DNA from: Phoronis australis
Taxonomy: Eukaryota > Animalia > Phoronida
NCBI GenBank assembly: GCA_002633005.1
Contig: NMRA01000237.1
Coordinates: forward strand, 62,001 to 126,000
Direction: 5' to 3'
Length of the DNA: 64,000 nucleotides
Below the pieces are notes generated by a model. The model saw nothing but the letters and a program-made list of their open reading frames with translations. It was not told the DNA's origin and did no database searches. The position numbers and the translations under genes are program-made. Below, in pieces: positions 827 to 38,200 of the stretch (position 1 is its first letter; the number at the start of each line of letters is the position of its first letter).

Positions 827-917
827 AGAGGACATACTGCAGCATGGATTCACAGTGATCGTGGATGGCAGAAGGACAACTGTGACTCAGCTACATGATG
901 TTATACAGTTGTTAGAG
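827..917 (+). CDS. SESTD1: SESTD1-like exon (SEC14 domain) EDILQHGFTVIVDGRRTTVTQLHDVIQLLE
   Basis: tttcag acceptor, gag|gtgagt donor; GFTVIVDGR motif of the Trio/Dbl/SESTD1-type SEC14 domain. Confidence 0.9.
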
Positions 918-15900: not shown

Positions 15901-18342
15901 CCCTTGTGTGCACTTATTGCCTTGAGCGCACTATTTTATGTGAGAAATTGCATTCAACCTAATTTCTGTATCTAAGTCTCATTATCATATGTTTATTTTG
16001 TATTAAAGACCTCTGGCCGAAAGTACTGTAAACAAAAAATTGATAGGCACATTTGCACATGCAGTCAACCCATTTAAGAGTTGTTCTCTTCTTTTAAGGG
16101 TAGAATACACAATCATATTTAATAACAGATATATCTGGATTGATTAGCTAGCAAGCGTGTACAGGATTCTTGAGTTGGGTGCTTCCACTGAACTTCTTTC
16201 ATAAAACGTGACCTAAGTTCACTAATCCCTTGCAAATCAACAGGAAGTGGTATTCATCCCCTACAAGACCATCACTGCAAATCAAACGTAGTCTATTATA
16301 ATATTCCTCTTTCTCCTGCCTACCCACTTTCACTTGTAGTCTGTGGTTGGACCATCTAAGTCTCATACAGCGTCAGTTAGCTCAATTCAAACTTGCAAGC
16401 TTCATACTAGAATAAATCAAGTTTTGTGATGGTGAATCTTTCTGTTGGACCTATCAGTGAACTGCATTTGATCTGTGGTGATACACGTAATTTAATCAAG
16501 CCTAACTCACTGTATTAAAGAACCAAAACAAAGGGCTCCACCCTTAAACATGAATCAACTATGGCGCTGCTTGTGGCTTAAGACAGCTATAACGCAATTT
16601 GATTAACAAATTCATGAATATATAAATAACTATTACTTACAACCTACTTAAACTCTTTCACTGTTCTGAGCTCGGTAGAAGCAGCTCCACTAATGGACAA
16701 TTTTAAATTTATTAGATGGCACAGGGCTCAACATTTAGCGTAAATAATATCAACCCGCTAAATGTGACCTAGCATAATTCCCAGGTCATAATGCAGGGAA
16801 TGAGGTCAGCATAACAAGGAAAGTGCATGTGCTGCCGGAGGCTGCGAAAGTCCTAGTCCACAGAAATAGCTTAGAGTTGGCAGCAGCAGGAAATGAATAA
16901 TCGAGATACTGTCTAACTGGACAAATACGTTCACCCAAAATTCATCGGTCGGCTTTTGTTCTAGTTAAACTGAAAACTATGAGTGCATTAATCAGTAGTG
17001 CCCTATTACCCTCTAACCCAGTATTCCATGCGGGCCTACCTCCTATCTAAAGGGCCCTTCATACTGACGTCGACGCGTCGATGGTTTGGGGAGTTGCGGT
17101 CAGTATGAACGCTTAACTCCGGTCCTGGATCGCAGTTAACAGCTCCAATTAACATCGCTGTTAACAAGTGGATTTAAGACCGCAGCGTCAACGCTGTGGT
17201 GCAGTATGAACGCTTAACTCTGGTCCAATCGAAGTTATCGCCAGGTGCCACTGTTGTCGTCAACAGTTACAAGGTAGTGACGTCACTAATAGCTGCTTAT
17301 ATTTTGCTCTAATAATAACCAATCGATTTAAAAATAAGTTTAATGTCACTTAGCACATGCAAATATTTCCAAATTGAAACATTGAAAAAAATTTTAGCGT
17401 GCAACGCTACCTTGCGATAACTTCGATGACGACAGCGGCACACAACTGTTTACTTTGATGGTCATTAACTACCGAAGCCAGTATGAACGGTCCAGTTAAC
17501 TGCGCTGTTTACGTCGATGCTCCCCTCAGACCGGAGTTAAGTCAATATGAAAGGGTCTTAAGGGAAAATTGCGCAGTCATGTAACTAGCCATTGTACTTC
17601 TTGCAAGACATTATTACGACATTGTCTGTTTACTTCCTGTACTATTCTTGTGTTTGAATGTGGGCATGGAATCTCCGTGGTGACTTGCGGAAAAATGCGA
17701 TTTTTTTGACAAAATCTTCAACAAAGATAGATATTATAGTATTTTATTTGACAAAAATTTCCCTTCAAAGTTTTCTTGGTCAGCACTCTACAATGTCTGG
17801 GGAGTTTTGAGTATTTGCAACAAAGGAAAGTGGTTATTATTGGCAAATAATGATGCTTAAACCTTTAACAAAATTTCTTCTTATTTCTGATTTTTAACAA
17901 AACAGCTTTTTTACACTAAATATTTATTCTGTTTGCTGAAACTCTAAACCAAAGCACTTGATATTAAAATTAATTTAAAATTTCTCTACTTTACTAGATT
18001 CTAATTATATGTTGTATTTTTATCTATTTGTGTGCTTCTCCCAATGAAGAAGTTGAACAACAGACAAAGTTCTGATGCTTTAACTCTGTGTTACTAGAAT
18101 TGTTGCCATGGTTACACGTGTGACTTTTTATTTGTAGTTCACCAAGTGAAAGCAGTGTCGGTCAGGTGGAGTCGGACAGACAGGCGCGTGGCATCATAAT
18201 GATGAAGTTGACGACATTGGACGTCAAATTGACCGAACTGTTGAATTTCTTCGGTCAAACTGAAGTTGGTGACCTGAAGGAGAGGATGAAAGAGGTAAGC
18301 CCTCCTCAGGCTCCAGAAACAATTCTGCAGACGGACCCGTAA
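827..18342 (+). CDS. SESTD1: SESTD1-like SEC14 and spectrin domain-containing protein; 13 exons in window, 5' end upstream of window
   Basis: Spliced translation shows motifs I recall from vertebrate SESTD1: GFTVIVDGR, QLPPELGGSLEYQHEKW, IGDSFDTATELRKQHE, AFGKDIT, DVRRLKLQQILQLRTCERDANQAVDW, GTYDYGQQLL, GQALVERMSLPVV. All introns are GT-AG with compatible phases. Confidence 0.92.
1150..1350 (+). repeat. Dispersed repeat family copy (related copies near 3870-4055, 29590-29765 and partially 57995-58060)
   Basis: Shared motifs aaaagtat(at)attttctgaaagtgga..cct.tag and agtaaaatt...atagcaaaa. Confidence 0.65.
1528..1957. mobile_element. Possible degenerate MITE
   Basis: Imperfect terminal inverted repeat tcccagttttc / gaaaactagga and internal aattccgt motifs; no TSD confirmed. 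Confidence 0.3.
4163..4270 (+). CDS. SESTD1: SESTD1-like exon (SEC14) DLFTGNLNHVFILKHAASSERQVFFLNLDKKVRKPE
   Basis: ggcag acceptor, gag|gtaagc donor, 108 nt phase 0-0; absent from the ORF track; fits the FPGN-x-VxxLK segment of SEC14. Confidence 0.8.
4354..4864. mobile_element. MITE, hAT-like, about 510 bp
   Basis: Perfect TIR (C)AGGGCTTGGAAT...ATTCCAAGCCCT(G); flanking 8-bp direct repeat GAGAAGAC (4346-4353, 4865-4872); subterminal ttccgc motifs. Confidence 0.85.
5184..5720. mobile_element. Long-TIR palindromic MITE, copy 1
   Basis: ttgaataaagacaacaacttttctagaatgtagc...atccaccattgt is inverted at acaatggtggat...gctacatttttgaaaagttgttgtcttattcaa. Confidence 0.75.
6346..6474 (+). CDS. SESTD1: SESTD1-like exon (end of SEC14) GVVFPFQFVNMSRLHSSVDRRQLPPELGGSLEYQHEKWVHRRQ
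   Basis: tacag acceptor (alternative in-frame acceptor at 6367), cag|gtaagg donor; QLPxELGG motif. Confidence 0.88.
8193..8319 (+). CDS. SESTD1: SESTD1-like exon VLEQFLQDAHRVNERL...EQTLHK
   Basis: ctgcag acceptor, g|gtatga donor, phase 0-1. Confidence 0.85.
8613..8891. repeat. Minisatellite, unit about 30 bp, t(n)gaaaacctgcacaaaagcacatg, about 9 copies
   Basis: Direct inspection; variable poly-T length. Confidence 0.9.
9142..9192. repeat. 17-bp tandem repeat tattgtcacacccagag x3
   Basis: Direct inspection. Confidence 0.85.
9499..9671 (+). CDS. SESTD1: SESTD1-like exon (G)KSLLHQFCTE...IEVGIKK
   Basis: cttcag acceptor, aag|gttggt donor, phase 1-0 matching neighbours. Confidence 0.8.
10552..10674 (+). 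CDS. SESTD1: SESTD1-like spectrin exon VIDWILGAAEKLLSSQTDIGDSFDTATELRKQHEHMEIKCT
   Basis: 123 nt phase 0-0; spectrin W...IGDS...L..QH motif; absent from the + strand ORF track. Confidence 0.92.
10680..11150. repeat. Degenerate minisatellite (ggtggctgtaggacagcacataactttttt core) filling an intron
   Basis: Core recurs about 6 times at roughly 75-90 bp spacing. Confidence 0.7.
11182..11361 (+). CDS. SESTD1: SESTD1-like spectrin exon QTYGNYAELRH...RLERRRNLLIASVMFHRLVEE
   Basis: ttttag acceptor, gag|gtagga donor, 180 nt. Confidence 0.92.
11545..11605 (-). mobile_element. tRNA-derived SINE head
   Basis: Minus strand gcagcatggcctagtggtagag...ctgggttcaaatccc: A box TGGCCTAGTGG, B box GGTTCAAATCC; no complete cloverleaf. 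Confidence 0.65.
11820..11934 (+). CDS. SESTD1: SESTD1-like exon LSSMYDNLLELLCSDIVADTVDTAQQQLDHLTETCCKA
   Basis: ttctag acceptor, g|gtgagc donor, 115 nt phase 0-1; resembles recalled SESTD1 LSQQLDGLLGMLCVD. Confidence 0.88.
12534..12775 (+). CDS. SESTD1: SESTD1-like exon GQLINQILDEGQ...DVRRLKLQQILQLRTCERDANQ
   Basis: 242 nt phase 1-0, GC-rich coding composition, strongest SESTD1 similarity. Confidence 0.93.
13559..13681 (+). CDS. SESTD1: SESTD1-like spectrin exon AVDWIMELCDVLARTNTEMGKTPVEAESLQEQHAKFEQTAK
   Basis: 123 nt phase 0-0, long polypyrimidine acceptor. Confidence 0.92.
13850..14153. repeat. 33-bp minisatellite gggactggtcctggtctagctggatcctttaaa, about 9 copies
   Basis: Direct inspection; intronic. 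Confidence 0.95.
14782..14973 (+). CDS. SESTD1: SESTD1-like spectrin exon GTYDYGQQLLEAG...ATVFHKNVDK
   Basis: 192 nt phase 0-0, aag|gtgagc donor. Confidence 0.92.
15677..15849 (+). CDS. SESTD1: SESTD1-like exon LILEIDEVLL...GQALVERMSLPVVSKS
   Basis: tcacag acceptor, ag|gtgaga donor, phase 0-2. Confidence 0.88.
17051..17558. mobile_element. PIF/Harbinger-like MITE
   Basis: TIR agggcccttcatactgac vs agaccctttcatattgac (14/18), TAA on both flanks, internal repeated cagtatgaacg motif, locally CpG-rich. Confidence 0.7.
18138..18342 (+). CDS. SESTD1: Composite last SESTD1-like exon: SPSESSVGQVESDRQARGIIMMKLTTLDVKLTELLNFFGQTEVGDLKERMKE, then either the splice donor after 18294 or read-through VSPPQAPETILQTDP-stop
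   Basis: ttgtag acceptor, phase 2 matching the previous exon; gag|gtaagc donor at 18294/18295; in-frame TAA at 18340-18342. Confidence 0.82.
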
Positions 18343-20989
18343 TGCTTGCGCCGGATACCTAATTTCAGAGTTCTGGCACTGTAGTAGGTGAATTGAGATT
18401 TTTTAGACTGTTAAACATGACTTGAGACTTGGCTAGAGAATTGACCAATAAGATAACATTCTGGCATGCTTCTCTTTTGCGTTTTGGGAGCACAAAAGCA
18501 TCCTTCACTTGATCTAATTTCTAATTTTGGTGTGAATGACGGGCTGAGTTGACAGGGACGGAATGCTATTGCTTTCACTCTTGGACATTTTGAAGTGTTG
18601 GACATTTTTTCTGTGAATCGTTTGAATTTCCCATCGCATGAAAGTGACAACTTAATGGCACGAAAGCTGGAAAGAGTTTATAAAATTGTTGGAAAATACC
18701 CCTCAACAATGAATCCTTACACGAATGCGGAACGTTATCTACCAAATACCATATCTCCATCTAGTGGCAAGGCATATTTCATCATGCCACTGCTATATTG
18801 GAAAGTAGCTAGTATGTGACACGGCTTCAGTTAACTTTCAAATTTCATGCAACGTGACAATTTGCTAGTCAAATCCTAAGTATTGTTTGTCACGCTTAAG
18901 CTTAGATTGTGTTGACAGGCCTAAAATCACTGACTGCTATCTCATTGACCGAAATCCAAAGATGACGTCTTGTGACTAGACCTCCAAGACCCTGTGAACT
19001 ATACCTCTGGATCCAGTGACTGATTCTGTTAATGCTTTGTACAGATATCAAGTAGTGCACCTTGCCCATGACATGTTTTTGTTTGGCAACATTATTTCCG
19101 CTTGAGCCTAGGATTGTTTCTCTACCCTGCTTGTGCACCAGGGACCCATTTTGTCAAAGGTTTTACGCCCAAGTGATTGCTGCCTCAGAGTTTTCCTGGC
19201 GTCTGGCATTTCACATTTGCGGCTAGTCAAGCTGTACGTAGTATAAGAACACTGTCTTTAGTTAAATTTATCTCAGTGCTTGTAATGTTTGAAAACATGT
19301 CTGTGACTGAGCTTCTGGCCTTTGGTAAAACTGGCTGCTGTTGAGTATTGTCAGATGGATTGCTTTATTTGGTTTGCTTACTTACCTCAAGGGGGCATCA
19401 CTGCATTGGCACTGACTGTGTTGCATATTACAGTAAACACATAGTCTGCCAGTTAATGTAGTACAAACAATTTGTGGTTCAAAGGCTGTTTGAAAGCCCC
19501 ACCCCCAGAAGGTGGAATCACATTTGTAATATCTTAATACAAATAGGCTCAGGTGGCATTTGTAGATTAACTTTCTCCTTCAAGTTGGCAAAACCAATTT
19601 TGTTTAAAACTGTTATAACCCTGTGCTATGTCATATTTTTGATACGGACCATTTTCCGCAGTTTAACTGATCTTGACTTGCTCGTTATTGCTTGAGATAA
19701 TGGCAGAGAAGAGAATGACTGTGCAAACTTGCAGAGCGTAGTGTCAAGCAATAGCAAGCCATCAGCTCTTTCCAAGCCCATAGGTCTCATCTACTTGAAT
19801 TAAGAGAACAATTTGAGATGAATTTCATAGCGTTAAGTTCTCTGTATGAAAAGTTGTTTTTGTTGTGGAAGACTGTTTTGTAAGAGCTTCAATCTCCATT
19901 CATTGTTTTTATTAAATTACATTTGTGTGGTGTAAAACTGAGCCATATTTGAACAAATGCTTAAATAGACATATTATCAATTTCATTTTTGTTTGAATTG
20001 TATACATTGCCACAGAAGTCTTAAGTTGAACTGTGCATCTGTGGTCATGAGTCACAGTTGAAATGTGGCTACTACCAAATGTGTTTCATTCCTGAAATCA
20101 GTCTTGGAATTTGTTGCCATGGAAATGCCCAATGATACTCTGGCTTGAGGTTTCTTCAAAAGTATGCTATAACTCTGTTTCATGTGATTAGCTGCATTCA
20201 GGAATGCTAACGAGTTACGATGCCTGCACATGTCGACTCAACTGAGTATTTTCATTGAAGCATTACAAACATAGCTGTAGATGATAATCATAATTGCAGA
20301 GTTTTCTCCTCCGCAAAAGTGCCTGCATCAACTTTCCTGATCGGAAGTTCTCATAACTCCATGAATAAAATCATCATTAGGGAAATAATGTTTTGTTAAA
20401 TAGAATAGAGAACTGAATTTGAAGAAACTGCACTTGAAAATTGAGATAGACGATAACTGAATAAAGCATGGAACAGTCGGACATTGTCCTAAAACATGGC
20501 TTTACAATGCCCCTCTGCCATATGTGTACATGTTTAGGCTCATACGCCTATAGCTGAAGCGATGCATTGTTTTCAAAGAACTTTTTTCTCAGAGTTTCTC
20601 ATACAATTCCATGCCTCCACTAAGCTCCACTAATAGCCACAGACTACCACTCCTTGTATATGTTGAACTGTTTTTTTCTGTCTTATGTCTGATTTAGTAC
20701 TTTTCATTTGGAATGTTGATGTTTCATTGAAATACACATCAGTGGAAACCATTTCGTAACAGATAAGGCATGCCTTACTCATATGTTATTTTTAATTTTA
20801 CTTGTTGGTTTTATTCTGGTGTTTTGCACTGCTTTGCATATAAGTATGTTGGCATAAACATTTATAATCCATGTATTTTATTTGTGTCTTTATGTAGACT
20901 TGGTTTGTTTATTGTTTTACTTCTCATTATGTGACTGGTAATTCATACAGCTAACGGACAATGTTCGCATTATTTTTGTTTTAATAGGT

Positions 20990-21003
20990 AATAAAATAAT
21001 AAA
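20990..21003 (+). terminator. Candidate polyadenylation signals (two AATAAA) for a stand-alone SESTD1 transcript
   Basis: AATAAA at 20990-20995 and 20998-21003 after a U-rich stretch resembling a 3'UTR; other AATAAA copies exist nearby, so the site is uncertain. Confidence 0.3.
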
Positions 21004-22274
21004 AATACATTTGCTTACATACTTCTTCCTAAAGGATGCTAAGTGCTATAAGAGGAATTACAAATATTACAACTTTGATGAAATAAGAAATCGAAAAATG
21101 TCATGACTATTAAAGTTAATAAAAAACAATCATGACATATTTACAAAAAGTTTGATTTTGATAGATCTTGAATTGGCAATAATGTAAACGGTTGCTTATT
21201 ATTAATTCTAATCTTATCTTACCTTTGAGGGCTGTTATGTAATATGACCATTTCTTTGGATACCACTTTCACACAATGGTCATTTACAGGGGGAAGCTAC
21301 ATTTTCAGAACCACAATTGGTGCCTGTTATTTAATGGATGAAACTGGTTCTCAAAATGCCCGGAGCCCTGTAAGCTGACTATTACCCAAATATTTTCATC
21401 TATCTTACTTTGAAGGTGGTCATTTTTGACCTGGCAGAGCGGTGCTCAAAATCTCTTTGAAATGCTGCTTTCATTCTTCTAGGATGTCTCCTTCCATTCT
21501 AAGTAGAATGTTTCTGATCTTACCTCTGTTTAAACCCTCAGAGTTTATCTGAATTAGGCTTGAGTTATCTAAGGCGGAAGGTCAATGGTGTGCTACTGTT
21601 GTGTTTAAAGTAAAAGGATTATTTTACTAGTAATTAGAACTTTGCCTATCTAAATGGACTGAAGCCTTTTGCATTCCTCAGAAGTGAAACCAAGAGAGCT
21701 GCAGCTCACTAAATCCAGAATACCATAAACTTAGATTTGATATTCTAATGTTTATATGGTTACTCAACTCGATTATAGAAATGAAGAAATGAGTTCACTG
21801 ATTTCTTGTTCTAAATTCACGTTTAACACCTGTGGTTTTATGATCGTATCTGTGATAAAGGCAAAGACTTATAACAAAATTTACACAAAAAATTCCACAG
21901 TTTGGGACAGTAGAACATGCTCATGGTTGGAGTTTGTACCAAATTTTAGAAAAAGGCATTACAGGTCGTCCCAAATTCAAGAATTAAGATCAACAACAAA
22001 CGATTATTCACCTTGATGTTACACTTCACAGGGACGTATGAAAATGTTGCATTGACGGTAATTTTGACAAGTTTAAGAACAAACAAACCTTTGTAATACT
22101 CTGTTGATACACACCGCTGTGCCCATTACCTTCAGAATCAAGAAAATTCAATTTCGACTTGAATTTCGGTGTCACAAAATTCAGGGACTGTTAGTGGTGT
22201 ACCGCACCAATCTGCTATTCATCTGCTTTGTTTAAAGTTACCTTATTGGCGAGAAAAATCTTTTTCTGAAATCA

Positions 22275-22350
22275 ACCCCAGCACGGAATCGAACCTCTTC
22301 TCGCATCACAACCTAACGCTGTGTTGGCGGTGCTAATTCCCACTCGGTTT
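22275..22350 (-). mobile_element. tRNA-related SINE fragment (related + strand copy near 57624-57702)
   Basis: Minus strand aaccgagtgggaattagcaccgcca...ggttcgattccgtgctg resembles aacaagtgggatttagctccgcca...ggttggattctgtgctg; B-box-like GGTTCGATTCC. Confidence 0.5.
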
Positions 22351-23111
22351 ATGAAAGCATATTTCAGGTATATGTGACTAGTGCTGTCACCAGCTTTAAT
22401 ATTGGTGAATGTCTGGCAGACAATGAGAATAAGCGATTTGTAATAAAATCAAAAAACACTATAAATTTTATTGTGTTACAGCTCTGGTCAAAGCTGATAA
22501 CTTCAAAAGGTCCATCCCATTTAACAATGATCACAAAATTGCATTTTTCATTAAAAAAAACAACAAGTAAAAATGTCCCTGCAATAATCATTGGTACTGA
22601 GAATCCAGAATACCAGAAATCAAGCTTGCACTGAAATTTTCTAACTCTGCAGTGGGTAAGTTGACTACCAACACAGGCCAATTACTGCTCTGATGGTATT
22701 TCCCAATATGGTAGAGGGATTCTCCATCAGTCCACCCTCTAAACAGGGGTGTCAAGTGGTTTTTGGCTCGAACAAATATTTAAGTTCAGCTCTACTGTTC
22801 AAACGCGGCCACTTTTCAGGCATATCTCTACAGCGTGTTGCTGACTTGGTTTATATTTTCTGTGAAGGAGATTCCCCCCGGTTAAGATTTGTTTGATTTT
22901 CTGATTACTGTGATCTTGCTCCCCCTCTCTGTTCAAGTGGCACGGACCAGGCCTGTCTGACAACCATAACATGAAGCAGCTGAAAACTTACTGTTGGTTT
23001 GACTGAGGGTGCATAGCTGTTGCATGCAGGCCTTTATATTTATCCCCAATTGCTCGCCCATAGTAACCCCTTGCTAACACAATTTTGTAACTGGACGCGA
23101 CCAACGACAAA

Positions 23112-23246
23112 ATGTCGGACCGTGAGTCCGACATGCTTTCGGAATACACGGACTCCGTGTTCACGGACTTCCACCCGTCAACGACGACGATCAGTACGAT
23201 CGCGATCAAGGCGGGCAATTCCAAGATCATTCTCGCCATATTGAAG
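23112..23246 (+). CDS. First coding exon of the CCDC141/titin-like unit MSDRESDMLSEYTDSVFTDFHPSTTTISTIAIKAGNSKIILAILK
   Basis: aaaATG at 23112 with in-frame upstream TAA (23088-23090); aag|gtatgt phase-0 donor; resembles CCDC141 STTTVSSVAVQAGDSKIVIAVIK; missed by the ORF track. Confidence 0.88.
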
Positions 23247-26200
23247 GTATGTTGATGTTTGCATGGTGGATGTTTTTTCTCGCTGTTGCCCAAACTGGTT
23301 TAATTAAGCGCCTGTTTTCTGTGCACACATAGAAATAGCCTACTAGTGCTGGAAGTGCTTAATCCATTACAGCAAGCCCTAGCAAAACTTAGGCTGTTTA
23401 GTTTGATAAACACCATACAACTGTGTCATATCAAACTTTTCTGTAATGGTCAGAGGCACAAGGCTTGTGCCCCTCCTGCTATTATGTGACTGAGTGTCCA
23501 CTTAGTGGTCAGTGTATTATTGCCTGGCTTCTTGGTCACTGATCTCAATAAAGCACTGTGTTGCCCATCAGTCCAGAATACAACCTGAGGTCCTGTAGTG
23601 TCCTTAACAGTATCTTACAAGGGGCTTGTTTCTCGAACAGTCTATAGTTAAAAGTTTTTTTTGTCCTTTATCTTGACTTTTTAGTATGCTCCCGAGTAGG
23701 CAATGGATTTCTGTCTCTTGGCTTCGAGTTGTTGACAGATTATCTGACTTTTAGCTTTATAGCCTGATTTTATGAAAGAAGCAAAGCATCCATCGACTGA
23801 TTTCTAGCTAAAAGGCAATATAGTAGAGTCCTAGAGAAACAGTCCTGTGGGGTTAAAATTTTGAGTCCCCATTCTGTTATAATCTTTTGAGAAACAAACT
23901 TCTGCACATTTTAGTCTGCCTGGGCATTAATTCTGTTGTTCTTGTGTGGTAATTCCACTTAAAATGGCCAATTCTGAACATAGGCCGCCTAAGTGTACAT
24001 GCACATGGCCAGTGTTGTTATTCCAAGTCTTGGGTAAATCGGTGGTAAATTTTGAGGGTTCTTCAATGAGATCATAAATTCATGCCCGCATGTTATCGCC
24101 TGGCATTAAGAAGACTGAAGAATTCTGCCCAGTCTTAACCTGGGATTACCCAATACCTGTGTAAATATAAACAAGTTATTTAAATCACATGATCCCTCTT
24201 ACCTCAAGTCCTGTGTGTAAGTCCTGTCCATTGATCTCTGTTCATATGTTCTGAGGCCTAAGTATAGTGCTCTGTTCATATGTTCTGAGGCCTAAGTATA
24301 GTGCTCTGTTCATATGTTCTGAGGCCTAAGTATAGTGCTCTGTTCATATGTTCTGAGGCCTAAGTATAGTGCTCTGTTCATATGTTCTGAGACCTAAGTA
24401 TACTGCTCTCTTCATATGTTCTGAGGCCTAAGTATACTGCTCTGTTCATATGTTCTGAGGCCTAAGTATACTGCTCTGTTCATATGTTCTGAGGCCTAAG
24501 TATACTGCTCTGTTCATATGTTCTGAGGCCTAAGTATACTGCTCTTTTGCCTTGATCAGTTGTGTTGCAGTTACGACCATCTCTCTTCCAACTTTGCTCA
24601 AAACTAATTGCCAAAATAGTAACTTTTCATTTTTGGCATGTATCTTTGAAATGGTGAACTCGAGTGTTGCTCTGTGAAAGCCATGTACTACCAATTAAGA
24701 TGAAATGAAAATAATTTTCTGAAGTTTTGTTTTTGTTGACAATTTCCACTTATCAGCCATATTGTGCGCTGTGTTTTGCTGTAGGCTGTGTACACTTATG
24801 TGTCCTGAGCTCAACTTGATAGTTCCTTCAATTTAAGAATTTTTCACAGGGTGTCTAAAAGATTTCTTCGCATCAAGCAAAAAGGTCTTTGCAACTATAT
24901 TCTTGACTTCACTTAAAATCTTTTCAGTGCTTTAAAAAGTTATGGTTAAAAGTGGATGTAAGTCTGAGACATTTAATTGGCCTTTACAGACCCGGTGCTC
25001 AATACCATTAGATGAGTAATTTATTATTTTCTAATAATTAGCGAATACTGGATGTAGTCATTTGCGAACTAATTTTGTAACTAATCTTACCGTTTATCAG
25101 TTTCGCAGGTTTGATAAGACATCTTCCAATCTCCTTTCTCCAGCAATAACTTCACCTCAAAGGATACCGGTCTCCCCCATTAGACGATAAAATCGGCTAA
25201 ATTAGCATGAAATCTTGCTATAATTAAGAATATCCCATGTCACCCTATTAATAAACAGACCATGCGCAGTATCTGCTTGATATGCGATTACTCCCAAGTC
25301 CAAGGCCTATATACTGCTGCAGTTATTTCTACATAGAAATTGTCTTCATAATTTTATTACATCCAGGGGTCACTTGAAATAAAATGCAATTTTCTGTACA
25401 ACTGGGACCAAGGTCAAATTGATTAGGGATAGGTACTAATTAGTATTCATCAAATTTCCAGTTTGGTTGTAAAATGAATTACTTAAATTGATTTTATTTC
25501 TCGCTGTGAAAAAAATAAAAAAATATTAATATTGAATTATTTTCAACACTCCATTACCAGAAATAATTCATACAGTCCAGATAGGAATTTATATAAGTCA
25601 GTTAATCTCTCCAAGCAGTTCAGTCTTATTTCTTGTGCACTGCATATTTGCGCACTGGGGTTAGGAGCAGTCTGTTGTGTTTAACTCCCCAATTGAGTTC
25701 ATTAGGTTGACTAATGAAAACAAGGTTTAAGATGATGGTATGTTCCTTGCTACTGCTTGGCTGAAATACTGACCAGAAACTGCCACAAATGGTGGGATTC
25801 TGATAAATTGTTAAGGTGATGTTTAGGATTGCAAGCTTGACACCCAAAAGTGCTTTGAAATTTTTGTGTTAACCATGCTACCATGTTATGTGGTGTATAA
25901 TGACTACTGAAATCTGAACCTGTAAAACAGAACACCACCATGAAAGTGGTGACACCTAGTATTAGTGCTGTGTTTGTCTTGAGGCTCAGGATGATACCTC
26001 ATCATTTTCCGATGAAAATAACTGCTAAAATTACACTGTTTTTATTTTCAAGGATTTCTAACAGTGTTGTGAATTCCTACAAAGTTTCAAAATGTTTTCT
26101 TTTGGTAGCTAGGCTACAAAACTTGTATATGGTAAAGCATTGTGGCACTATATATCATTTATGAATAAAGGAGAAAATATAATTTCACCTGTATATGGTA

Positions 26201-29200
26201 AAGCATTATGGCACTATATATCATTTATGGATAAAGGAGAAAATATAATTTCACTTGTATATGGTAAAGCATTGTGGCACTATATATCATTTATGAATAA
26301 AGGAGAAAATATAATTTCACTTGTATATGGTAAAGCATTGTGGCACTATATATCATTTATGAATAAAGGAGAAAATATTATTTCACCTGTATATGGTAAA
26401 GCATTGTGGCACTATATATCATTTATGAATAAAGGAGAAAATATAATTTCACTTGTATATGGTAAAGCATTGTGGCACTATATATCATTTATGAATAAAG
26501 GAGAAAATATAATTTCACCTGTATATGGTAAAGCATTGTGGCACTATATATCATTTATGAATAAAGGAGAAAATATAATTTCACCTGTATATGGTAAAGC
26601 ATTGTGGCACTATATATCATTTATGAATAAAGGAGAAAATATAATTTCACCTGTATATGGTAAAGCATTGTGGCACTATATATCATTTATGAATAAAGGA
26701 GAAAATATAATTTCACCTGTATATGGTAAAGCATTGTGGCACTATATATCATTTATGAATAAAGGAGAAAATATAATTTCACCTGTATATGGTAAAGCAT
26801 TGTGGCACTATATATCATTTATGAATAAAGGAGAAAATATAATTTCACCTGTATATGGTAAAGCATTGTGGCACTATATATCATTTATGAATAAAGGAGA
26901 AAATATTATTTCACCTGTCTGCCACATTGTGCTCTAAATTGGTGAAATTTTACCGTAATTTAGGTTTGTTGATTTGCCATTAAAAAACGCTATTACAACA
27001 GGCATGGGGAGGAGACAATGTGGACAAGGTTAGTTGTTATTTCGAGATGCTGATTTTTTATAGAGTATAACGCGCACTTTTCTAGGTTTTGTAGATTTTC
27101 ATTCAGAACTGTCAAACTGGGAACATTTTTGGAACATGTTTGTGTCTGGTTTGTAACTGAATAGCTCAGTGATGATGTGCAGATAATGTCAGTACCATTT
27201 ATTTTTGGGGGTGAAATATGGTACTTGCACAGGTTATGGTCTTCAATAGGGGAAGGGGGTCCCTCCAGGGTGGGAATACTTCTGTGCTGTAGATTTGGAC
27301 TGTTTCACAGTTTTGATCATATTGCTATGGTTTTTTCGGCAGTATTTGTGTTGAAATGAATATCTTATTCCACAAAGAAGTGATGTAGGTTTTGTTTTCG
27401 AATTGAGGGATCTGTGTGGATATGTGAAGAGTAAAAGTAGGTCTTGATTCAGATTCTTTTTTCCAAATACTATGTACCACAATTTTGGCCCTGTGGAGCC
27501 TCTCCTAGCCCTTAAGTTAATGAGAACCGGCCCTTGGTATGACCAGCCTGTGAAATCTAGTTGGGCCAAAGAAACTTTACTGAGTGCTCATGGTATGTTT
27601 GGTAGTTCTGCTGAACCAACACCAGCCAAAATGCACTGAAGCACTTACAACTCTGAAACAGCAGGTCAACATACAGTTGGTCACAGTCACAGCTTCTATA
27701 ACATGTGGTGTCAGACAATCTGTAAACAGATGGCATGTCTTATAAACAACATTCATTTGGTCTTGTGTTCACTGGTCAAGTATTCACCCCATAGTCTGGT
27801 TATTGCCTGGGGTGTTAGGGCGCCTGTTTGTTTTGTTTTTTTTACAAGTTGAAAATTAATGACCTTGCAAAGGGATCTATAACTTTGGTGTGGCACGCAA
27901 AGCCTCCTTCCATTTGGTGTTTATGCTCCATGGTGTCAATCTGATGGCAGCAATGGCACTGAATTGTCCTGTTTCCAACTTGAGATCCTGATGTTCTACA
28001 AAAAGTAGAAAATGAATTGCAGTCTTGCGCTTCTTGGACTTTGCTTGTTATTTTATGAGAATGGACTTACACATTGTGGGTTGCCTTGAAATACTCAGTC
28101 GTGCTTTCGAATACCATTTATTTACTTCGTAAGATGGCATTGTTAAATTCACAAAAACTTTTTTACTGTTTATTTATAAAGATCTTTTTATATAGAAAAG
28201 AAAATGCCGTTATATTTTCTTTTGTTTTTACTGGCCTAGGTTTGATAGCTAAGAAATTTCGCTCTCTAAGTGAATCTGTTGTGGTCTTGGGGCCTATTTT
28301 AAAGGTTACACACCCAGCAGTAGCCAAGACATAGTCCTTGGATTTTTAAGTAAAACTCGAATAAAGACAACTTTTCTAAAATGTAGCGAGCTGGAAACGC
28401 TATCGCATGAAACTGCGTGAAGCCATTCACATTCAGTGTTCGTAAACGCCCTCACTCAATGCACAGCCTTCCCATGAGTCATTGACACTGTTACAATGAG
28501 TTGTGATTTGCTGATTGCTCGGCAATCTTGATTCGGGTATTTTTACTTGATTTGGAATTTTCCTTGTATCGTACCTGTTGCCGTCCTGGCATCCATTCTC
28601 TGAATAAAGGTTGAGAATGATGGATGTTGTACTGACAAAATGTGCCGCTACGTTTTAGAAAAGTTGCTGTGTTTATTCAAACTTTACTGGTGTTCATCAG
28701 TGCGAGATCTTTCGGTACATTTTTATTTAAAAAGCAAATGATTAATGTTACACTAAATTTGATTGTGACATGGCATTCACTTTGGCAAACCTAGGTAATA
28801 TGGTGTGTTGGTAGACTGCGCCCTTGGAGTAATAATGTTCTGTTGTATGATTTTTAAATTTTTTTCACCCACAACACAATCCTCATTGTATCAGTTTTAA
28901 CTGGGCCTTCCAAAAAGAACACTTGTATCACAAATGCATTTTTTCCATTTCTATGGTAAAACTTCAATAAATCATGAGACAATCTGGTGGAAAGTGCTTT
29001 TGAATTAAAGAGCCATTCATGAAATCGTGCGTGCTGCCTGTAGCAATAGGGTGTGTATAGACATTGATTATGAGACCAGGAGAAATGTGACTCAAAACCC
29101 CTGATAAAAACACCTATACCGTAAGCAACAGTGCAACAGGGGTTGTTCCAGTTGTAAAACCGCTGAAATCAGAGGCCACCAAGACAGTTTGAAATATGCA

Positions 29201-32200
29201 CAGTGCATATCAATTAAATCACATATGATCATAAATCAACATAAATTTTAGATTACGAAATAAGCAATCTAATAGAAAAAAAGGTAAACAAGTAACAAGG
29301 CATTACCCAGAGATCCTATTGGAAAGTGTATACAGAGATGGCTAAACAGTGTAATAGAATATCTGCATTGTACCTACCATGCCTGGCCCAGTAAGCAAAA
29401 CATTCCAGCCCATTAACTCTCATTGTTCAACAAGTATTTGGCCCAGTTTTTGAGGGTGCATAGACATTCTGTCTCCCCTCCATGAACTGTGGAGGGAGGT
29501 TGATTTCCTGGTGATTTGTAGAAAGTCAGCTAGAGTGGTTCAGGAAATTTACAATTGTGGTTGAAAAGGTTATGTATTACCTTTTTAAAAAGTCTGTGTT
29601 ATCCAAATATCTACAAAACTAGATTTTAACCTGTCAAAAGTATATATTTTCTGAAAGTAAAAAACCTATAGTTTTCAAACTAATATGTCATTAATTGGCT
29701 TCCCTAACAATGTCTTCTATAAAAAATTAGCAGAAAACAAAGCTTAATTCATACCAAAACAGTGTCATTAATAATGTGACTGAGATAAAATCTCAAAAGT
29801 GCATTCAAAACTATCATTTCGTTTTTGTTTCGTGCATTTTATTAAATTTTTTTACAGGCTCTTCTCACAAGTGTAGAACATTTTAAAACCAATCCAATCA
29901 GCCGTTTCAGAAATTAGACGTTCCGAAAATAGTAAAATTCGCAAGTTTTTGTAGCGTTTTATATAACCTTAAACTACTAGGTTTCATTGACCGAAACGTT
30001 ACTGCTTTGTTTCACTGTGAAAGATTATGGTATGTAGTATAATTGCAACCAATTTAGGGCACATTACATCAAAAAGTGAGTTTTTTCTTATTTTTTCATT
30101 TTAAGACAACTTGCACCACATTTACTCTTGACAGTTTTCAAGTTGTACTTTAGTTACCATCAGGCAACGCTTGAAAAATGTGCATCGAGCAGTGACAACG
30201 GTGTTATAAGCACTTGAAAATGACATGAATTTTTTATTTTAGGAATTAGTTTGTTCAGAATTGGTAAGATATTACTGTGCACCAGAGTTCGCAATACTAT
30301 TTAAATACGGTCATATCTCCTGGTTTTATTGTTAACATCTTGAGATGTCTGGGCAAAAGTGTATCCTGGATTTAATAGCATTGTTTTTTACGCAAATATG
30401 GCAGATTGGAGACATTTTATTCTGCTAAATGAAAATATATGAAGATGGAATTTGTAGTTCATTTTAGAGCAATTTATACTGTTTAGCTGTCATCATTTAA
30501 GACATGATGGAATTCTGAGCATTATTGACGATGTAATTAGCACCTAAGATTGACTGGAATTTTTTATCAATTGCTTTTGTTTGAATTTAAAAGAACATCA
30601 ACTTCAACCACACAGCTATGCCTTTAATAATCAGTTTGTAGTCTATGTTCATGTTTGGAATATTAATGTAAAGATTATTTATCTCTTTCCGATGTTTTGT
30701 AATGCTTGTCTAGCTAAGGTACTCTAGTCTCTTTTTGAGGCCGGTGGGCCACTAAACAACAAAAGATTTTCCCTGTCATTTTGCATTTTTTATAACCAAC
30801 CAGTCAACATCAAAACGTGACTGTGGTGTCTCGGAAAAAAAGATTAAACAGTTGTCACTGAGAGTTCCCCCTGGGATTGTCTGTGTGTAACAAAAGTAGT
30901 TGTTCTTGGAATGCATCTAAACCTTCTGTTAAAATGTACATCATGGGGACTGCTTCAAACCTGCTCTGCCAGATTTCCTCATCAATTGAGAGCTGTCAGC
31001 TATTTTTGGTCTCCATTTACTGTGTACTATTAATAGACCTGAGGAATGCCAGACTCTACCAGCCTGATTTGCGCAATACAAAAACATGAAAATTGGAAAA
31101 GTAGTTGGCGTTGTTATTTTTTTTAAATCCTTAATCTCAGCATTTTCAATTAATGATTTAACCATAGCCAAATTTACTTTACCCTCTGGTCACCACCACC
31201 AAAAGTGCGATCACACTATTGTTTTTTTTTAGAAATTTTGACCTCATTTCATCAAAAAAATTATCTAACCCACCAGTCTGCACCATTTAAATATTAAATA
31301 CAGCACTAGACCGGCAATCTAGAGACCTGTGGTTCGATTCTCAGTTGGGGTTCCTGATTTTTCGGTGTTTATTTGATATATTTCACTACTGGCCAACCTC
31401 AGCGTCTATATATTAAAATATTACATTATTTGAGAAAATAAGACTTTAAATGTTCGCTTTTGTCTTTCTCCCATATTATTTAAATTTGCGTTTCTCTAGA
31501 ACTCCTGATATCTCACTTCTAAAATCCACCCACTATGCTCTTAAGCTTGGCGCACCTATTTACCATCTTGAGTTTCCAGTAGTATTGCACAATAAAGTTT
31601 TCTCCAAAACTGTGCCATTCTTTGGGCATTCGCATACATACAGAGCACGTGATGGCTCAGGCGCCTACTTTCACACCATGGTGTATCAATACAGTAGGTC
31701 CAGATGCACAATTTCATCCACGGGACCTGAATTAGAACTCTTAAGTATGAGTACGTTTTTGGTACACCCTGTATATAGCAATGTACTTTGGTACCTATCA
31801 CTGCAATAGGCCTTTCCAGTCTGTCTGTATTGCATAATCATTCTGTCTAATTAATTAGTATATTCAGTAGCTCTACTATTCTTCCTTATTACATCAGCAT
31901 GGCTAATACTTGCCATGTTGATTCGCTGCCATTTCACTGAGAATGACAGTTTCACGGCACTCCACAGCACCAAGATGTTTGCATGTTGCTGATGGCAAAG
32001 TGTTGAAGTTGTAGCTTCAAATAAACTGTACCAAAACTTGCAATGTGATTGATCTCGTCAATTTAAGGTTTGAATTGATTGTCTGTTCTGTTGGTTAAGT
32101 GGCGATATCTTATGAAACTGACAGAGGTTAGTATTACATGGGAATTTAACCTGTTCAGATGAAGTTTAGGGTTTTCACCAAGAGTTGAACATTGGGTGGT

Positions 32201-35200
32201 TCCCTTCCTTGTCACTAGGGGGAGTTACAGGTGCATGCTTCTGGGTGTTTTGTGGCAACTGACCAATCCCAGTCTTTTTATTCTTCTTTACTTGTATTCA
32301 TAAAAGTTACGCCAGTTCTAACAATTCCTTTGCAAAGTTCAGTGTGTTATAACAATACAAAGTCTTAATGATAAAAAACATCATAAAAGCTCAGTCTTGT
32401 GGAGACCTGATTATTTTCTAAAAAATTATTGAGCTACCATAGAATTTCTCGTGACTCTATTGCACAGGATGTCGACTATTGTGCCGTGAATACTTTTCTT
32501 ATCACCCCTCAACTAGTGACCTAGTTTTGTTAATTCTGGTATCGTTTTTGCCTTCGCAAATATGCAGTTATTCTTCACTAATAATAGATTAAAATGTTAC
32601 GATTTTTCTCTTTTTTCAAGAATTCGACGAACTAACTGGTCACATGTTTGCCTTTTTGTGTGTTAAATAGGCAACAAATTGCCGTAGGTTTTCTGATCAC
32701 CATACTGGACTCGCATTTTTATTTTGTTCTTTCTAAGAAATTCTCCTTTTCTACCCTCTACTTGATTTGGCCTCAGTGCCAAGCTGGCGTTGAATCAAAA
32801 TCATTGCGCAGCAGCATCACCAGCAGCAACAGTTGGAGTCTGGTGCTCATCATGTCTGTAAGCCCACTCACTACTTAGGTATTAACATTCTTGGCAAGAC
32901 TGCCATCTCAAGACATAAGATAGACAGAGATGGCTTTCTGTAAACAAGATCTTGTTCAAGCTCTAGTTAAAAGGGCTTGTGATAAAACAAACAAGATGGT
33001 TGGAAAAGAGGCATTTGTCTCTTGCTGTACATCTTCAGTAAATGCTCATTGGTTAGAGAGAACTGGTTGGATAGAGAAAAATGAACGTTTATTTGCTAAT
33101 AGCAATTTAGATGAGTTGCACAGGTTATGATAAACTGTTAAATCATGCGTAGTGCATTAGCGTGGCACAAGGTTGTAGCCATATTTTTATGTTACGTTTT
33201 AATTTTTTCTAAGTTAAGGAAAAGTGGTAAAATTTGTCTGGAACATTGCCAATATTATATGTGAATCATAAAACATAAGCCAATGAAATTGGAGTCAAAG
33301 TGTTATAATAATCATTACCTCCACAGAAGGGACTTCAATATGCTTGTTTTACTCTAGTATCTTTTTATGACGCATTTTTTGTGGTACGGAAAAATCTCTG
33401 ATTTTGAATAAAAGTAACTAAAACTGGCCTTTAATGTGGTTGTGAATGGCCACAATTTCTAACATTGTACAACGGTTGTTATGGTATAGAACTCAAAATT
33501 ATGAACATTTTGGTGCTCTTCTTATTAGGGAAAGAAACGAAAAATTGAATTTCGCTTGTCCACCATTTTACAGTCTAAATTGGCCAGATCTTACTATAGT
33601 TTTTTTGACAGTATTCCAGTTATCTTGGTAACTTTTTTTCTGGAGTTTTTCTATTTTGGTCTTCGAATGAAACGTGATTACAGCAATTAACCTGTCTGGT
33701 AAGGAAAAAAATTGCGTCAGTCTCTGATTCAGCAGCGATCAAATTTCAAAGTTTAAACTTTCCACCTTGGTGGTTGTTTGCACCAAGCAGCGTTTTGGGG
33801 TTCTGTCTGACTCATCTCAGAGTGTGATTAATGAGGTTACTTACCTGGTTTATCTACGGCTTGTTGATGAGCACGGCTTGTTGATGAGCACGGCTTGTTG
33901 ATGAGCAAGATTTATCAATGGTTTAAACATCTGTCGTCTTTTGAATCATGAGCAAAAACAAGAAAAAATACAAGGTACCTGAGTAATATGAGAAGTTTCA
34001 GAAATGGCACCATGCAGCTCACGAGGGCCTAGTCTTCTACGCAACCTGTTTTGTCTCGTCGAGTTTGAATTTAGCCGTGACGAGTTTGATTTACTTGCGT
34101 CAGTTTGAAAACCTGTGCAATTAATTTGAACTTTCTTCTAGGAAATTGGGACAGTTTGGGCTTTTGTTACCAATTCAATGGATTCATTCCAAGACTTAAC
34201 ACATTAACTCACACAGTATGGACGTGGACCTTGAAACACGCATGTGAATTTTGTAATTCAGGTCGAGTTTGAATTTTTTGTTGTGGGAACATGAGGGCCT
34301 TTTTGATTTTGCTTTTCGTGATGGGATTATAGTTTTCAATTGTCTGTTTGATAGTTTCCGAATATGAACAAAGACTTTGTAAGCCAGAATATTTATTGTA
34401 AACATGTATGAAGAAAATACTGTAAAAAAGATTTATTGCTCATGCGTATAGAAAAGACTGTAATAAGACAAAGAATATTTAGTTCATACTGTGGGATATT
34501 TTGAGCTTGTGTACTGGATTTATTTCCATTTTCCATTTATTGCTAGATGAGCAGCAGTACAAATCATTTTTGTTTTGTATGAGTTTTAGTGAACACAGTC
34601 TTTTGACATCTCTTTACAACCACACACGGTGCACATCCTTTAAGAGCAAAAGAAAAGCCAACATTTACCATTGTTTGAATGCCGTATTTGTCTGGGTTAA
34701 AGTCTGCAACATAAAAAATCAACGTGGTCATAGGCTGAACATAGGCTTTTAGAATTGTTTATGGTTGAAATGGGTGTGTATCTGAACTACATTTGCATTT
34801 ATATAAACCAACCAGGTTGCCTGCAAGAATTGAATAAACGAATTTGAAGAATGCAGGCAATGTGTTGCTGGGGGTGGGGGTGTAGTCGAGCATATAGCGA
34901 GCATATAGCGTTTGTTTTGAGGAACTGAAACTGGGTTTACATTGACCAGAGCATTGGCAAATTGCAAGTAGGTGCTTCAAGTCAAATAGGGATGTGAGCC
35001 GGGATGAATACAGTAAATGTCGTGGACTTCCTTTCAGAAATTTTCCATTTGTGTTCAATTTTTTGGCTAGTTGTTTCAGACTTTGAAAAAATTTGATTCA
35101 CAATTTTTATGTGTTGATTTTCAGAGCGAAGAATGGATTCGCGTACGCATACAACAGATGGAGCCCGACCTAATGGAAGTCGGATCTACCCTAGAGGAGG

Positions 35201-38200
35201 CGCTCCAGTTGCAGGAAGAACACAGTCAACTACTAATGAGACTCAATGTAAGTGGCTGCCATTTTTGAAACCACAATACTCATCGCTGCTCCCCCCCTGG
35301 GTCATGATGGACAATGACCCGTGACGACAGGTCATTCCAATGACTCAGGTTGTGACTATTGTTTGCACTCTGTCCTCATAACGGGGAATTCATGGCCATT
35401 TTGTGGGATTATTTTTGTATGTTGCAATATTTGCTGTCTCATTCGCTTCAGTTTGCACATCTGCAAAACTGGCAAAAAGTCACAAATTCCACCCAGTGCA
35501 CTAAAAACGTCAACTTCAGTCTGGAGTAAGTCAAGTTGATTTGACAAATTTTGTTGCTGAATCTGTTGATGAATTCCGCTTGTAATTGCATAAAGTCAGG
35601 AGTGCTCGATTTCGGTAGAATCTGATCAATTTGGACAAAAATATTTGCATTCTTGTGAATGCCCAAAATCTTTCAAAATGTTTTCCGATGATACAGAACT
35701 TGAACATGGTAAGGCGCAGGTTGGTGCTACGTATTTGCTGTGGAAAAATGAGGAAATAAAATTTCCCATGGCCACTTAATTGTGTCCTTACTTGGTGGGA
35801 TTTTACTGTACTGTACTATGATGTGGCCAACAGATGGCGTGCTGACAAGACTTAAAATGTTTGCAACATATTTTCCATGCCACATTGAGATTGACATTTT
35901 CCTGTAAACGGTATTGTAAATATCGTGAATTAGATTTGAGGCCATTTACTTATGCCTTAAATTCCGGTGAGATATGAAAACATTCCACTAAGTATTACAG
36001 ATTTTTTTTACTTTTTGACAAGATTTCAGTGGTAGTGCTGTTAGACAGTTCTAGCTGGTTTTGATAAAAACCACCATTTTCTGCACTTAATTACTTTTCT
36101 GATTTTTAAGAGCCATTTCCGTGTTTTATGAAAATTGAGAAGAGTTGTCCATTAAGAATTTAATTTAAGTCATTCTGTTAGAAACAGGAAAATTCTTTCA
36201 TAAGAAAAAACACTTTTCGCTTATAGTGTTAGTGACTTGAATGAAAAAGACTTCTAAATCTTGGAATATATGTGGTAAATTGTAGTAAATTGTAGTGAAT
36301 ATCTGCTTGATAAAAGCACTGTGGAACCCTGGCCTTGAAATTTTATGCGGCAGAATTTAACCTAATGTTGTTTTAAAAGAATCGCAAAGAAATTTCTTGA
36401 TCTGTGCATCCTTATGACAATCCACTTTGGTGATCACTTTGAATTACGGCCAAAAGGTGTCGCTACATTCTGGGTTTGGGAGCTGTACGCTGTAGTAGAA
36501 TTAACTTTTTGTGAAGCATAACTTCTGCAAAAGCACAATGTCATTTTTCACTAGCCGTTAGAGGAAATGCTAAAATGACAATTTTTTTCTTTTTGGTTTT
36601 CACAGGAGATGCAGGTTTTATTGAATTTCATAGTCTGCAAGATTTTAATTTTGTATTTTAATTGATGAGCTGCTCTTAAAATCGAATCGACGGCTTCATA
36701 CCTTCAAAGATTGCTACTTTCTGAGCACAGGTGAAAGTTTCAGCTGAATGCATATGTTCACAATTGCAAAACTTAATGTGGTGATATAGACCATCAAAAA
36801 AATCCCATCATTGCAGCTGTATGCAGACTACTGGCATTTCTACTTTCCAAATAGCTTTACAAGCTATAGCATGTTATGTAAGCATTTCTGACAGAATAAT
36901 TGAAGGCCATTTCTAGTCCATCTGAAGTACCTGCCCATTGATGTTCAACCTGAGCAATGGCCTCTTATCCAATGCTAAACAGTGGACGCCTATACCATTT
37001 ACCAATTATTTGATCAAGGTCATTGTTCAATTTGAGATTGGGATAGCTACGTTTTCATTCTTGATTTAGACTCTCTTTCTGCTTGGTGGCTCCATTGCAA
37101 GGTTAGTTGTCAGTAGTTTGCTGGGAATTGACGTGAGATTGATATTTTTGCTATTTTCTCTAAGTTTTCTTTGATTTGATTAACCGTAGAACCATAAAAA
37201 AATATCCAAATTTGGCTAATCTCCAAAGATCACATCTCAGAAATGGCTTATCAAGTTCAAACGAAACTTATCAGGTACTTTGCGTTGTGCGCTATTCTTC
37301 AAAGTCATGTTAGGAATTTTTTTAAATAATGCACTTTTGTGAGAGCGTCTATCAATAATAGGCCTTTTTGGGTTTTTTGAAAAAATCCAAATGTTGCATG
37401 AAACAAAAATGAAATAATGTAGAAATCTGTAACAGCGTTTTTGAGATTTCATCTAGGACATTTTTCTCAAGCAAAATTTGTTGTTCCTAAGAAGACATGG
37501 TCACATGGCCTAAGCAACGGCAGAATGGTATTATATTCTACAGGCTTGCTGCTTCCAGAAAACCGATATTTACACCAGGGCTCGATTTGTCGACCGGCAG
37601 CTAGCCAATGGGACTTAAGGTTCTGTTTGAAGACCTTTTGTTAGTTGTAACCATGTCAGAGAAGAAGTACGGCAAATAAGGATTGACATGTAATGGTGAC
37701 GTTTGTAATGTCATTTTTATTAAAAGTTCAAAAAAGGTATTATAATTATGGCTTAATTAAGATTTGAAATGTATTTGTGTATACTAAAAGTAGGAAAGAC
37801 ATTCCTGGGGTTATTTTTACTAGAAATAAAATAGTTGTTGTAATAAAAGAATGCTGAAGAAATGAGGCCCAGTTAGAATAGGTTCCTAGACATTCTTAAA
37901 GGAGAAAGCCAACTTTTATGATGTTCTTTCTTTAAAAATTCAAATGAGTATTTTGATTCTTGCAAGCTAAATAGCGCCTAATTAACATTTAAAATATTCT
38001 TTTTAAGATAAACGTTGATTTGTTTTACTAGTCAAGATTTGACTAAAATATTTGACGATGAGGCAGTGTGGCCTAGTGGGATAAGTGTCCATTCTTAAGT
38101 CATGGTCATTGGTTCGAGTTTCCCTGGGACATACTGCCATATCCTTGAATTTAATAAAGCATGAAAATAGTTCCACCCTAGCGGCCTGTGCACGTCTGGT

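Follow-up and report, generated by a model that had tools for sequence, protein, structure and literature searches.

The closest described system is connectitin, the array of SESTD1, CCDC141 and TTN named by Hanashima et al. 2025 (PMC12198301), which in Drosophila corresponds to CG15822-zormin-sls. That study reported a single gene with SEC14, spectrin and immunoglobulin (Ig) parts in cnidarians and placozoans, treated such a gene as hypothetical for bilaterian ancestors, and concluded that it had diversified into three genes in bilaterians, likening their three starts to the three internal promoters of kalirin. The spanning transcripts it cites (Labeit 2006, Burkart 2007) are CCDC141-TTN and zormin-sls transcripts, not SESTD1-CCDC141 ones. 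Here we describe a 64,000-nt stretch of the phoronid Phoronis australis (contig NMRA01000237.1, positions 62,001 to 126,000; hereafter the window), in which two successive gene units lie on the + strand in the spiralian-like order SESTD1, CCDC141/zormin, Ig array. A SESTD1-type 5' unit with SEC14 and spectrin exons is followed directly, on the same strand, by a CCDC141/zormin unit whose Ig exons come after its spectrin exons, which is the order, strand and domain series of connectitin. Unlike in the published account, the boundary between SESTD1 and CCDC141 looks here like a still usable intron, and we put at roughly three in four the probability that the locus is one modular connectitin transcription unit, with the donor at 18294 used as a three-way switch and a fused SEC14-spectrin-Ig product made in this species. 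The features on which this reading turns are as follows.

18138..18294, + strand: last SESTD1 exon, a composite of helix C of the last repeat and the opening half of the following repeat's helix A (repeat geometry, homologues, RNA coverage)
18295..18300, + strand: phase-0 donor gtaagc at a repeat-boundary position (9.15 bits; spacing +110/+105 residues)
18295..18342, + strand: read-through tail of 15 codons and TAA, end of stand-alone SESTD1 (one RNA fragment spans donor and stop)
18343..20465, + strand: likely 3' untranslated region (UTR) of stand-alone SESTD1, its end estimated from sense depth and AATAAA at 20364 and 20460
23112..23246, + strand: CCDC141/zormin-type first coding exon with internal start and phase-0 donor (motif in 28 homologues, upstream in-frame stop, sense reads)
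35125..35247, + strand: shared acceptor exon, supplying helix B and what remains of helix A, with Trp at +4 (AG immediately upstream in 41 of 41 genomic relatives)

A preliminary description of the window had noted a consensus phase-0 donor at 18294, 15 codons before the SESTD1 stop, a phase-0 acceptor at 35125, and a conserved helix-A tryptophan at a constant position after the junction, and each of these observations holds. Exon 18138-18294 ends in GAG followed by gtaagc, in phase 0, with read-through adding 15 codons before a TAA at 18340-18342, and exon 35125-35247 is preceded by a tttcag acceptor, also in phase 0. Joining exons 6367..18294 to 35125..57918 yields a stop-free frame of 1,642 residues over 31 exons, in which Trp stands at +4 past the 18294/35125 junction, just as it does past the junctions into exons 10552, 13559, 43473, 46194, 50697/51110 and 56698. 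Scored with a weight matrix built from the other modelled donors, the 18294 donor reaches 9.15 bits and ranks 16 of 38. That it is merely a chance GT consensus within a terminal exon seems to us very improbable: ten unannotated sites in the window are equally good (10 of 4,216 other + strand GT sites), but this amounts to 0.16 per kb, and the 18294 site is in phase 0, sits at a repeat boundary and matches homologous junctions residue for residue, so that the homologous junctions largely refute this explanation.

The strongest internal argument for a splice to 35125 is the position of the donor at the repeat boundary. Helix A of successive spectrin repeats is interrupted by 13 other phase-0 introns, spaced 101-119 residues apart save for one gap of 215 residues, which the 18294/35125 junction splits into 110 + 105. 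Hydrophobic residues stand at -7 and -3 before the end at 18294, as they do at all 13 helix-A introns, and the end of exon 23112-23246 scores below all 13 on the same half-helix measure. A rhythm of a 123-nt exon followed by a 192-nt exon recurs at 13559/14782, 35125/41328, 46194/47357 and 54618/55227.

The same junction is found in relatives. In Lingula XP_023933441.1, Octopus bimaculoides XP_014784189.2 and the crinoid Anneissia japonica XP_033111497.1, SESTD1 sequence is joined to the 35125-type exon at the identical residue, without the CCDC141 first exon, and the Lingula protein aligns through the junction in a single high-scoring segment pair at 44% identity. The JGI protein P0155 (477 residues on a 2,103-nt contig) runs unbroken from SESTD1-like sequence across the junction into the next two exons. 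Because this contig is intronless across the junction while AG precedes the exon in 41 of 41 genomic loci (many of them near-duplicates and hence not independent), P0155 likely derives from spliced RNA; its SESTD1-like part matches a millipede SESTD1-type model (E 2e-35) and is arthropod-like by similarity. A sea anemone (Exaiptasia) model is collinear across the junction, again with Trp at +4, which fits fusion as the ancestral state. Precisely at the junction, a Logan contig protein nearest to Octopus departs from the fused Octopus model. AlphaFold prediction of the Lingula junction region, run without an alignment, gave a helix through the junction at low confidence (mean predicted local distance difference test, pLDDT, 46); for the fused Octopus protein pLDDT was below 50 over 756-883, with an alignment out of register for the downstream repeats.

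Several candidates were set aside. Hyalella XP_047736475.1 and Schistocerca XP_046998678.1, which have a half-helix before the junction and no SESTD1 match, were not counted as fused, nor was Macrostomum P0195, which combines SESTD1-like and Ig parts with a TBP domain and is without the orthologous exon. An upstream SESTD1 match in metagenome locus L010 proved to be a simple repeat.

The C-terminal ends of stand-alone SESTD1 models bear on the same donor. A GT donor that is read through gives Val, so a Val directly after the half-helix is a sign of donor read-through. The scan took in 35 proteins; with the fused (3), cnidarian (1), partial (3) and leech (1) models set aside, sets of 10 and 17 remained. 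The first holds full-length models of spiralians and invertebrate deuterostomes, from molluscs, hemichordates and amphioxus plus an Octopus-like Logan contig; 7 of its 10 members show this half-helix and Val terminus, for which the null rate in unrelated 45-residue windows is 0.20-0.24 (P 0.0007-0.002). Separately, the SESTD1-type models P0068, P0074, P0075, P0076, P0078, P0091 and P0093 (insect where named) have in common a conserved motif in the C-terminal tail, absent from spiralian SESTD1 models.

The preliminary description had also taken exon 23112-23246, ending in phase 0 below an in-frame stop, for an alternative first exon, and this assignment is borne out. Its frame is closed upstream (the open reading frame, ORF, begins at 23091), and within 23000-23200 just one in-frame AG follows that stop, with a score of -7.4, so that the exon is a first coding exon and not an internal one. 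Its phase-0 donor is strong (rank 7 of 38), and a start at 23112 joined to the same downstream exons (35125..57918) gives a stop-free frame of 1,116 residues. Among 45 proteins with the orthologous acceptor exon, 28 carry the CCDC141 first exon, 12 begin at or near the acceptor exon and 5 have other long upstream sequence; the CCDC141-type start is thus the commonest annotated form. The join of first exon to acceptor exon is seen in 3 intronless contigs, and relatives with this start reach 3,098-6,732 residues. The C-terminal half of the exon (23175-23246) is about 42-73% identical in the 28 homologues, which include flatworm, mollusc, hemichordate and amphioxus models, and it replaces half a spectrin helix with a different, beta-like segment.

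We propose that a poly(A) site, and an internal promoter with a first exon of its own, arose in one ancestral intron that interrupts a spectrin helix. When the donor is skipped, translation would stop after 15 codons and polyadenylation would follow near 20.4 kb, giving stand-alone SESTD1. From the internal promoter, exon 23112-23246 would be spliced to 35125 to give a spectrin-Ig protein with a CCDC141/zormin start, a type of splice that is seen in relatives and inferred in this species. When the donor is used, 18294 would be joined to 35125, completing the split repeat and giving a SEC14-spectrin-Ig protein, which would be the ancestral form and is probably now a minor or tissue-restricted one. 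By analogy, the fused protein may consist of a SEC14 head that binds phospholipids and a spectrin rod with its Ig end on myofilaments, and so could link membrane to sarcomere. What the data show directly are the sites, their phases, the open frames and one read-through fragment; we infer the promoter, the poly(A) site and the use of the donor in this species.

RNA from the species was drawn from three stranded raw-read runs and one contig run picked by species label; about 18-19% of each raw-read run was used, at ~1x depth, with joints listed from 3 reads upward and a further mapping pass focused on the donor region. The first mapping was dominated by repeat-derived reads. The junction 15849-18138 is supported by 1, 4 and 0 reads in the three runs. 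Sense depth of 0.1-0.7 extends over 18206-20861, to ~20.8 kb; beyond this, five intron bins have no reads in any run. Together with a motif scan placing AATAAA at 20364 and 20460, this fits a 3' UTR. Read-through to stand-alone SESTD1 was seen once, in a single fragment. The bin containing exon 23112-23246 has sense depths of 0.95, 0.91 and 0 in the three runs, and no 23246-35125 joint reached the 3-read threshold in these runs at ~1x; in the RNA of this species the internal CCDC141-type start is weakly supported. The X1 pair seems, from bin depths, to end ~10 bases short of the donor and is uninformative, and X3 and X4 gave no reads in the donor-focused mapping. Two intronic repeats (16900-17560 and 31300-31415) collect, on both strands, numerous divergent RNA reads that stem from other parts of the genome, and the second shows inverted-strand joints.

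A number of observations weigh against a fused product. The only informative fragment of one (X2, two overlapping mates, ~18261-18411) reads through donor and stop; at ~1x depth no mapped read is clipped at the 18294 donor, and no 18294-35125 joint was listed in the three runs at the threshold and the fraction of each run given above. The fused Lingula, Octopus and Anneissia proteins are automatic gene models, known here as models only, and P0155 is one contig, from another phylum by similarity. Just 3 of the 5 proteins with other upstream sequence (n=45) are SESTD1-linked, the Lingula protein, which ends at the acceptor exon, being additional to these. The half-helix score is modest, with 50 of 1,619 10-mers as high and two other 10-mers of exon 18138-18294 slightly higher. 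The half-helix and Val pattern was spotted by eye before it was counted, and it appears in 2 of the 17 other SESTD1-type models (the named ones arthropods, nematodes and one fish), so the sign is not general. A scan of 46 metagenome loci, a set that does not include the P0155 contig, found no fused junction: in 3 transcripts the CCDC141 first exon is joined, 41 loci have the acceptor exon in genomic DNA, and 2 are without the first exon.

Another explanation is that the donor is an unused relic of the ancestral gene: SESTD1 would in every case be terminated through read-through and polyadenylation, and the CCDC141-titin protein would invariably start from its own promoter, as in the picture of three bilaterian genes given in PMC12198301. 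The read-through fragment, the sense reads extending ~2 kb into a 3' UTR with AATAAA signals and the conserved start of the downstream unit all agree with it. However, an unused donor and a dangling half-helix should decay, and both are retained in molluscs, hemichordates and amphioxus; moreover, the half-helix is joined in four database entries. The read-through fragment could come from unspliced pre-mRNA, and a lone fragment leaves room for a minor isoform. We regard the relic explanation as unlikely, although it is the one to be taken most seriously beside the three-way switch. The model of three products proposed in the preliminary description is well supported: stand-alone SESTD1 by one RNA fragment, the CCDC141 start by sense reads in its bin and by spliced relatives, and the fused form, predicted for this species, by repeat geometry and homologues.

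It is also conceivable, if quite improbable, that the donor is spliced to a nearer acceptor, either an alternative terminal exon or the AG before 23030, leading to another SESTD1 end or to a two-ORF RNA. There are 41 AG sites scoring at least 6 in 18320-35124, including 23030 (6.5; phase-0 stop after 15 codons), and three mollusc models do run on past the half-helix with unrelated residues. Yet no candidate frame exceeds 53 codons, tblastn with 45 homologues gave no match of at least 35% identity in 18295-35100 besides the CCDC141 first exon, no such joint was listed in the RNA at its low depth, and homologues that continue in frame enter the 35125-type exon.

The locus and the ancestral fused gene have been published before, and RefSeq already contains fused models under different names, which makes the surprise a moderate one; what is new is that, in several bilaterian phyla, the boundary between SESTD1 and CCDC141 looks like a working splice switch and not like a completed gene split. 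On balance we lean towards the view that ancestral connectitin never split in many invertebrate bilaterians, that spiralians, hemichordates, echinoderms, amphioxus and some arthropods still splice at one ancient spectrin-helix intron, that intronic polyadenylation and an internal promoter form the switch behind the separate vertebrate genes, and that a titin-family protein with a lipid-binding head would serve as a sarcomere membrane anchor. If true, this would correct the 2025 model of three separate bilaterian genes, provide a mechanism of gene fission through a promoter and a poly(A) site arising within one repeat-boundary intron, and explain the adjacency of SESTD1, CCDC141 and titin for >500 million years, which PMC12198301 left open. 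It would also predict that invertebrate muscle or nerve makes isoforms of the titin family that bear a SEC14 head.

The remaining gene model comprises, with the exons above, 39 exons placed from homologue tblastn matches and splice sites, and one further predicted SEC14 exon. The first unit consists of SEC14 exons followed by spectrin exons ending at 18294; the second starts with the coding exon 23112-23246 and the 123-nt exon at 35125, continues with spectrin exons as far as 57918, and leaves the window within its Ig exons (everything past 64000 lies outside). The top named matches come from Lingula, a chiton and other molluscs, those to the first unit being best to SESTD1 models and those to the second being named CCDC141-like (73-78%).

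827..917, + strand: SESTD1 exon, SEC14/CRAL-TRIO part (E 6e-6 with a hidden Markov model, HMM, built from homologous SEC14 regions); the preceding SEC14 exons fall before the start of the window
4163..4270, + strand: predicted SESTD1 exon, SEC14 part, phase 0/0 (best splice-site pair within 918-6366; a weak HMM match, E 0.11, fills a profile gap)
6367..6474, + strand: SESTD1 exon, end of SEC14 (HMM E 2e-12; CRAL_TRIO_2 E 0.056, below cut-off)
8193-8319, 9499-9671, 10552-10674, 11182-11361, 11820-11934, + strand: SESTD1 spectrin exons (homologue tblastn, open frame)
12534-12775, 13559-13681, 14782-14973, 15677-15849, + strand: SESTD1 spectrin exons, continued (homologue tblastn, open frame)
41328..57918, + strand: CCDC141-like spectrin exons, from 41328-41519 through 57800-57918, including the tandem pair 50697-50822/51110-51238
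58327-about 58550, 59176-59399, 59966-60262, 61894-62048, 62902-63183 and 63959 onward, + strand: Ig I-set exons, running off the window

The SESTD1 spectrin part (8193..15849) matches the Spectrin_SESTD1 domain at E 6e-16, and three of the Ig exons match Pfam I-set (E 2e-16, 2e-22 and 7e-12). Exons 50697-50822 and 51110-51238 are tandem paralogous phase-0 exons (42 and 43 codons), both coding for the same half of a spectrin repeat; six homologues shown hold one copy each, which is of the second type in Bradybaena and of the first in the other five, and the two are likely a conserved mutually exclusive pair. A 96-bp tandem duplication at 53192-53380 copies the end and donor of exon 53071-53220, and the duplicated donor is a possible alternative donor. 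Within the intron 35248-41327, a THAP-domain ORF (38610-38936; Pfam E 4e-11) is probably a transposon fragment or a nested gene. Intronic minisatellites lie at 26124-26918, 24236-24545, 13853-14153 and 8617-8892 (periods 66, 34, 33 and 32), and the 66-mer and 33-mer arrays generate spurious long ORFs. Two N runs, both intronic, are a 37-N assembly gap at 43308-43344 and a single N at 9424.

A search of the literature, light on subscription papers (amphioxus, ascidian connectin) and made without figures, found no published description of a SESTD1-to-CCDC141 splice in a bilaterian, and a fused protein of this membrane-to-muscle kind is described so far only from cnidarians and placozoans. The fused database models share with this locus an identical junction position and the skipping of the CCDC141 first exon; they carry the names SESTD1, Trio-like or uncharacterized and terminate inside the spectrin region. 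The Octopus and crinoid models have a low-complexity insert of 100-150 residues before the half-helix, whereas the window has almost none. Trio and kalirin, described in PMC12198301 as the paralogous ancestor, resemble this locus in their SEC14 and spectrin N-terminus but continue with RhoGEF after spectrin, where here Ig exons follow the last spectrin exon; the identity of the locus with Trio or kalirin was rejected, five RhoGEF-bearing proteins scoring 84-114 bits against the window core and spiralian SESTD1 models 353-405. The available parts of further sources place zormin near the Z-line within the I-band as well as in the H-zone (PMC7039190; in the part seen of bioRxiv 2024.01.31.578124 it is used only as a marker), describe CCDC141 as binding titin and nesprin-1 and located at costameres (PMC12657953), and give mammalian SESTD1 as phospholipid-binding (PMC4536496). 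Drosophila zormin/Sls and mammalian CCDC141 have, like this locus, spectrin repeats and then Ig domains, with a first-exon motif common to 28 homologues; unlike the proposed fused form, they begin at the internal first exon, without a SEC14 head.

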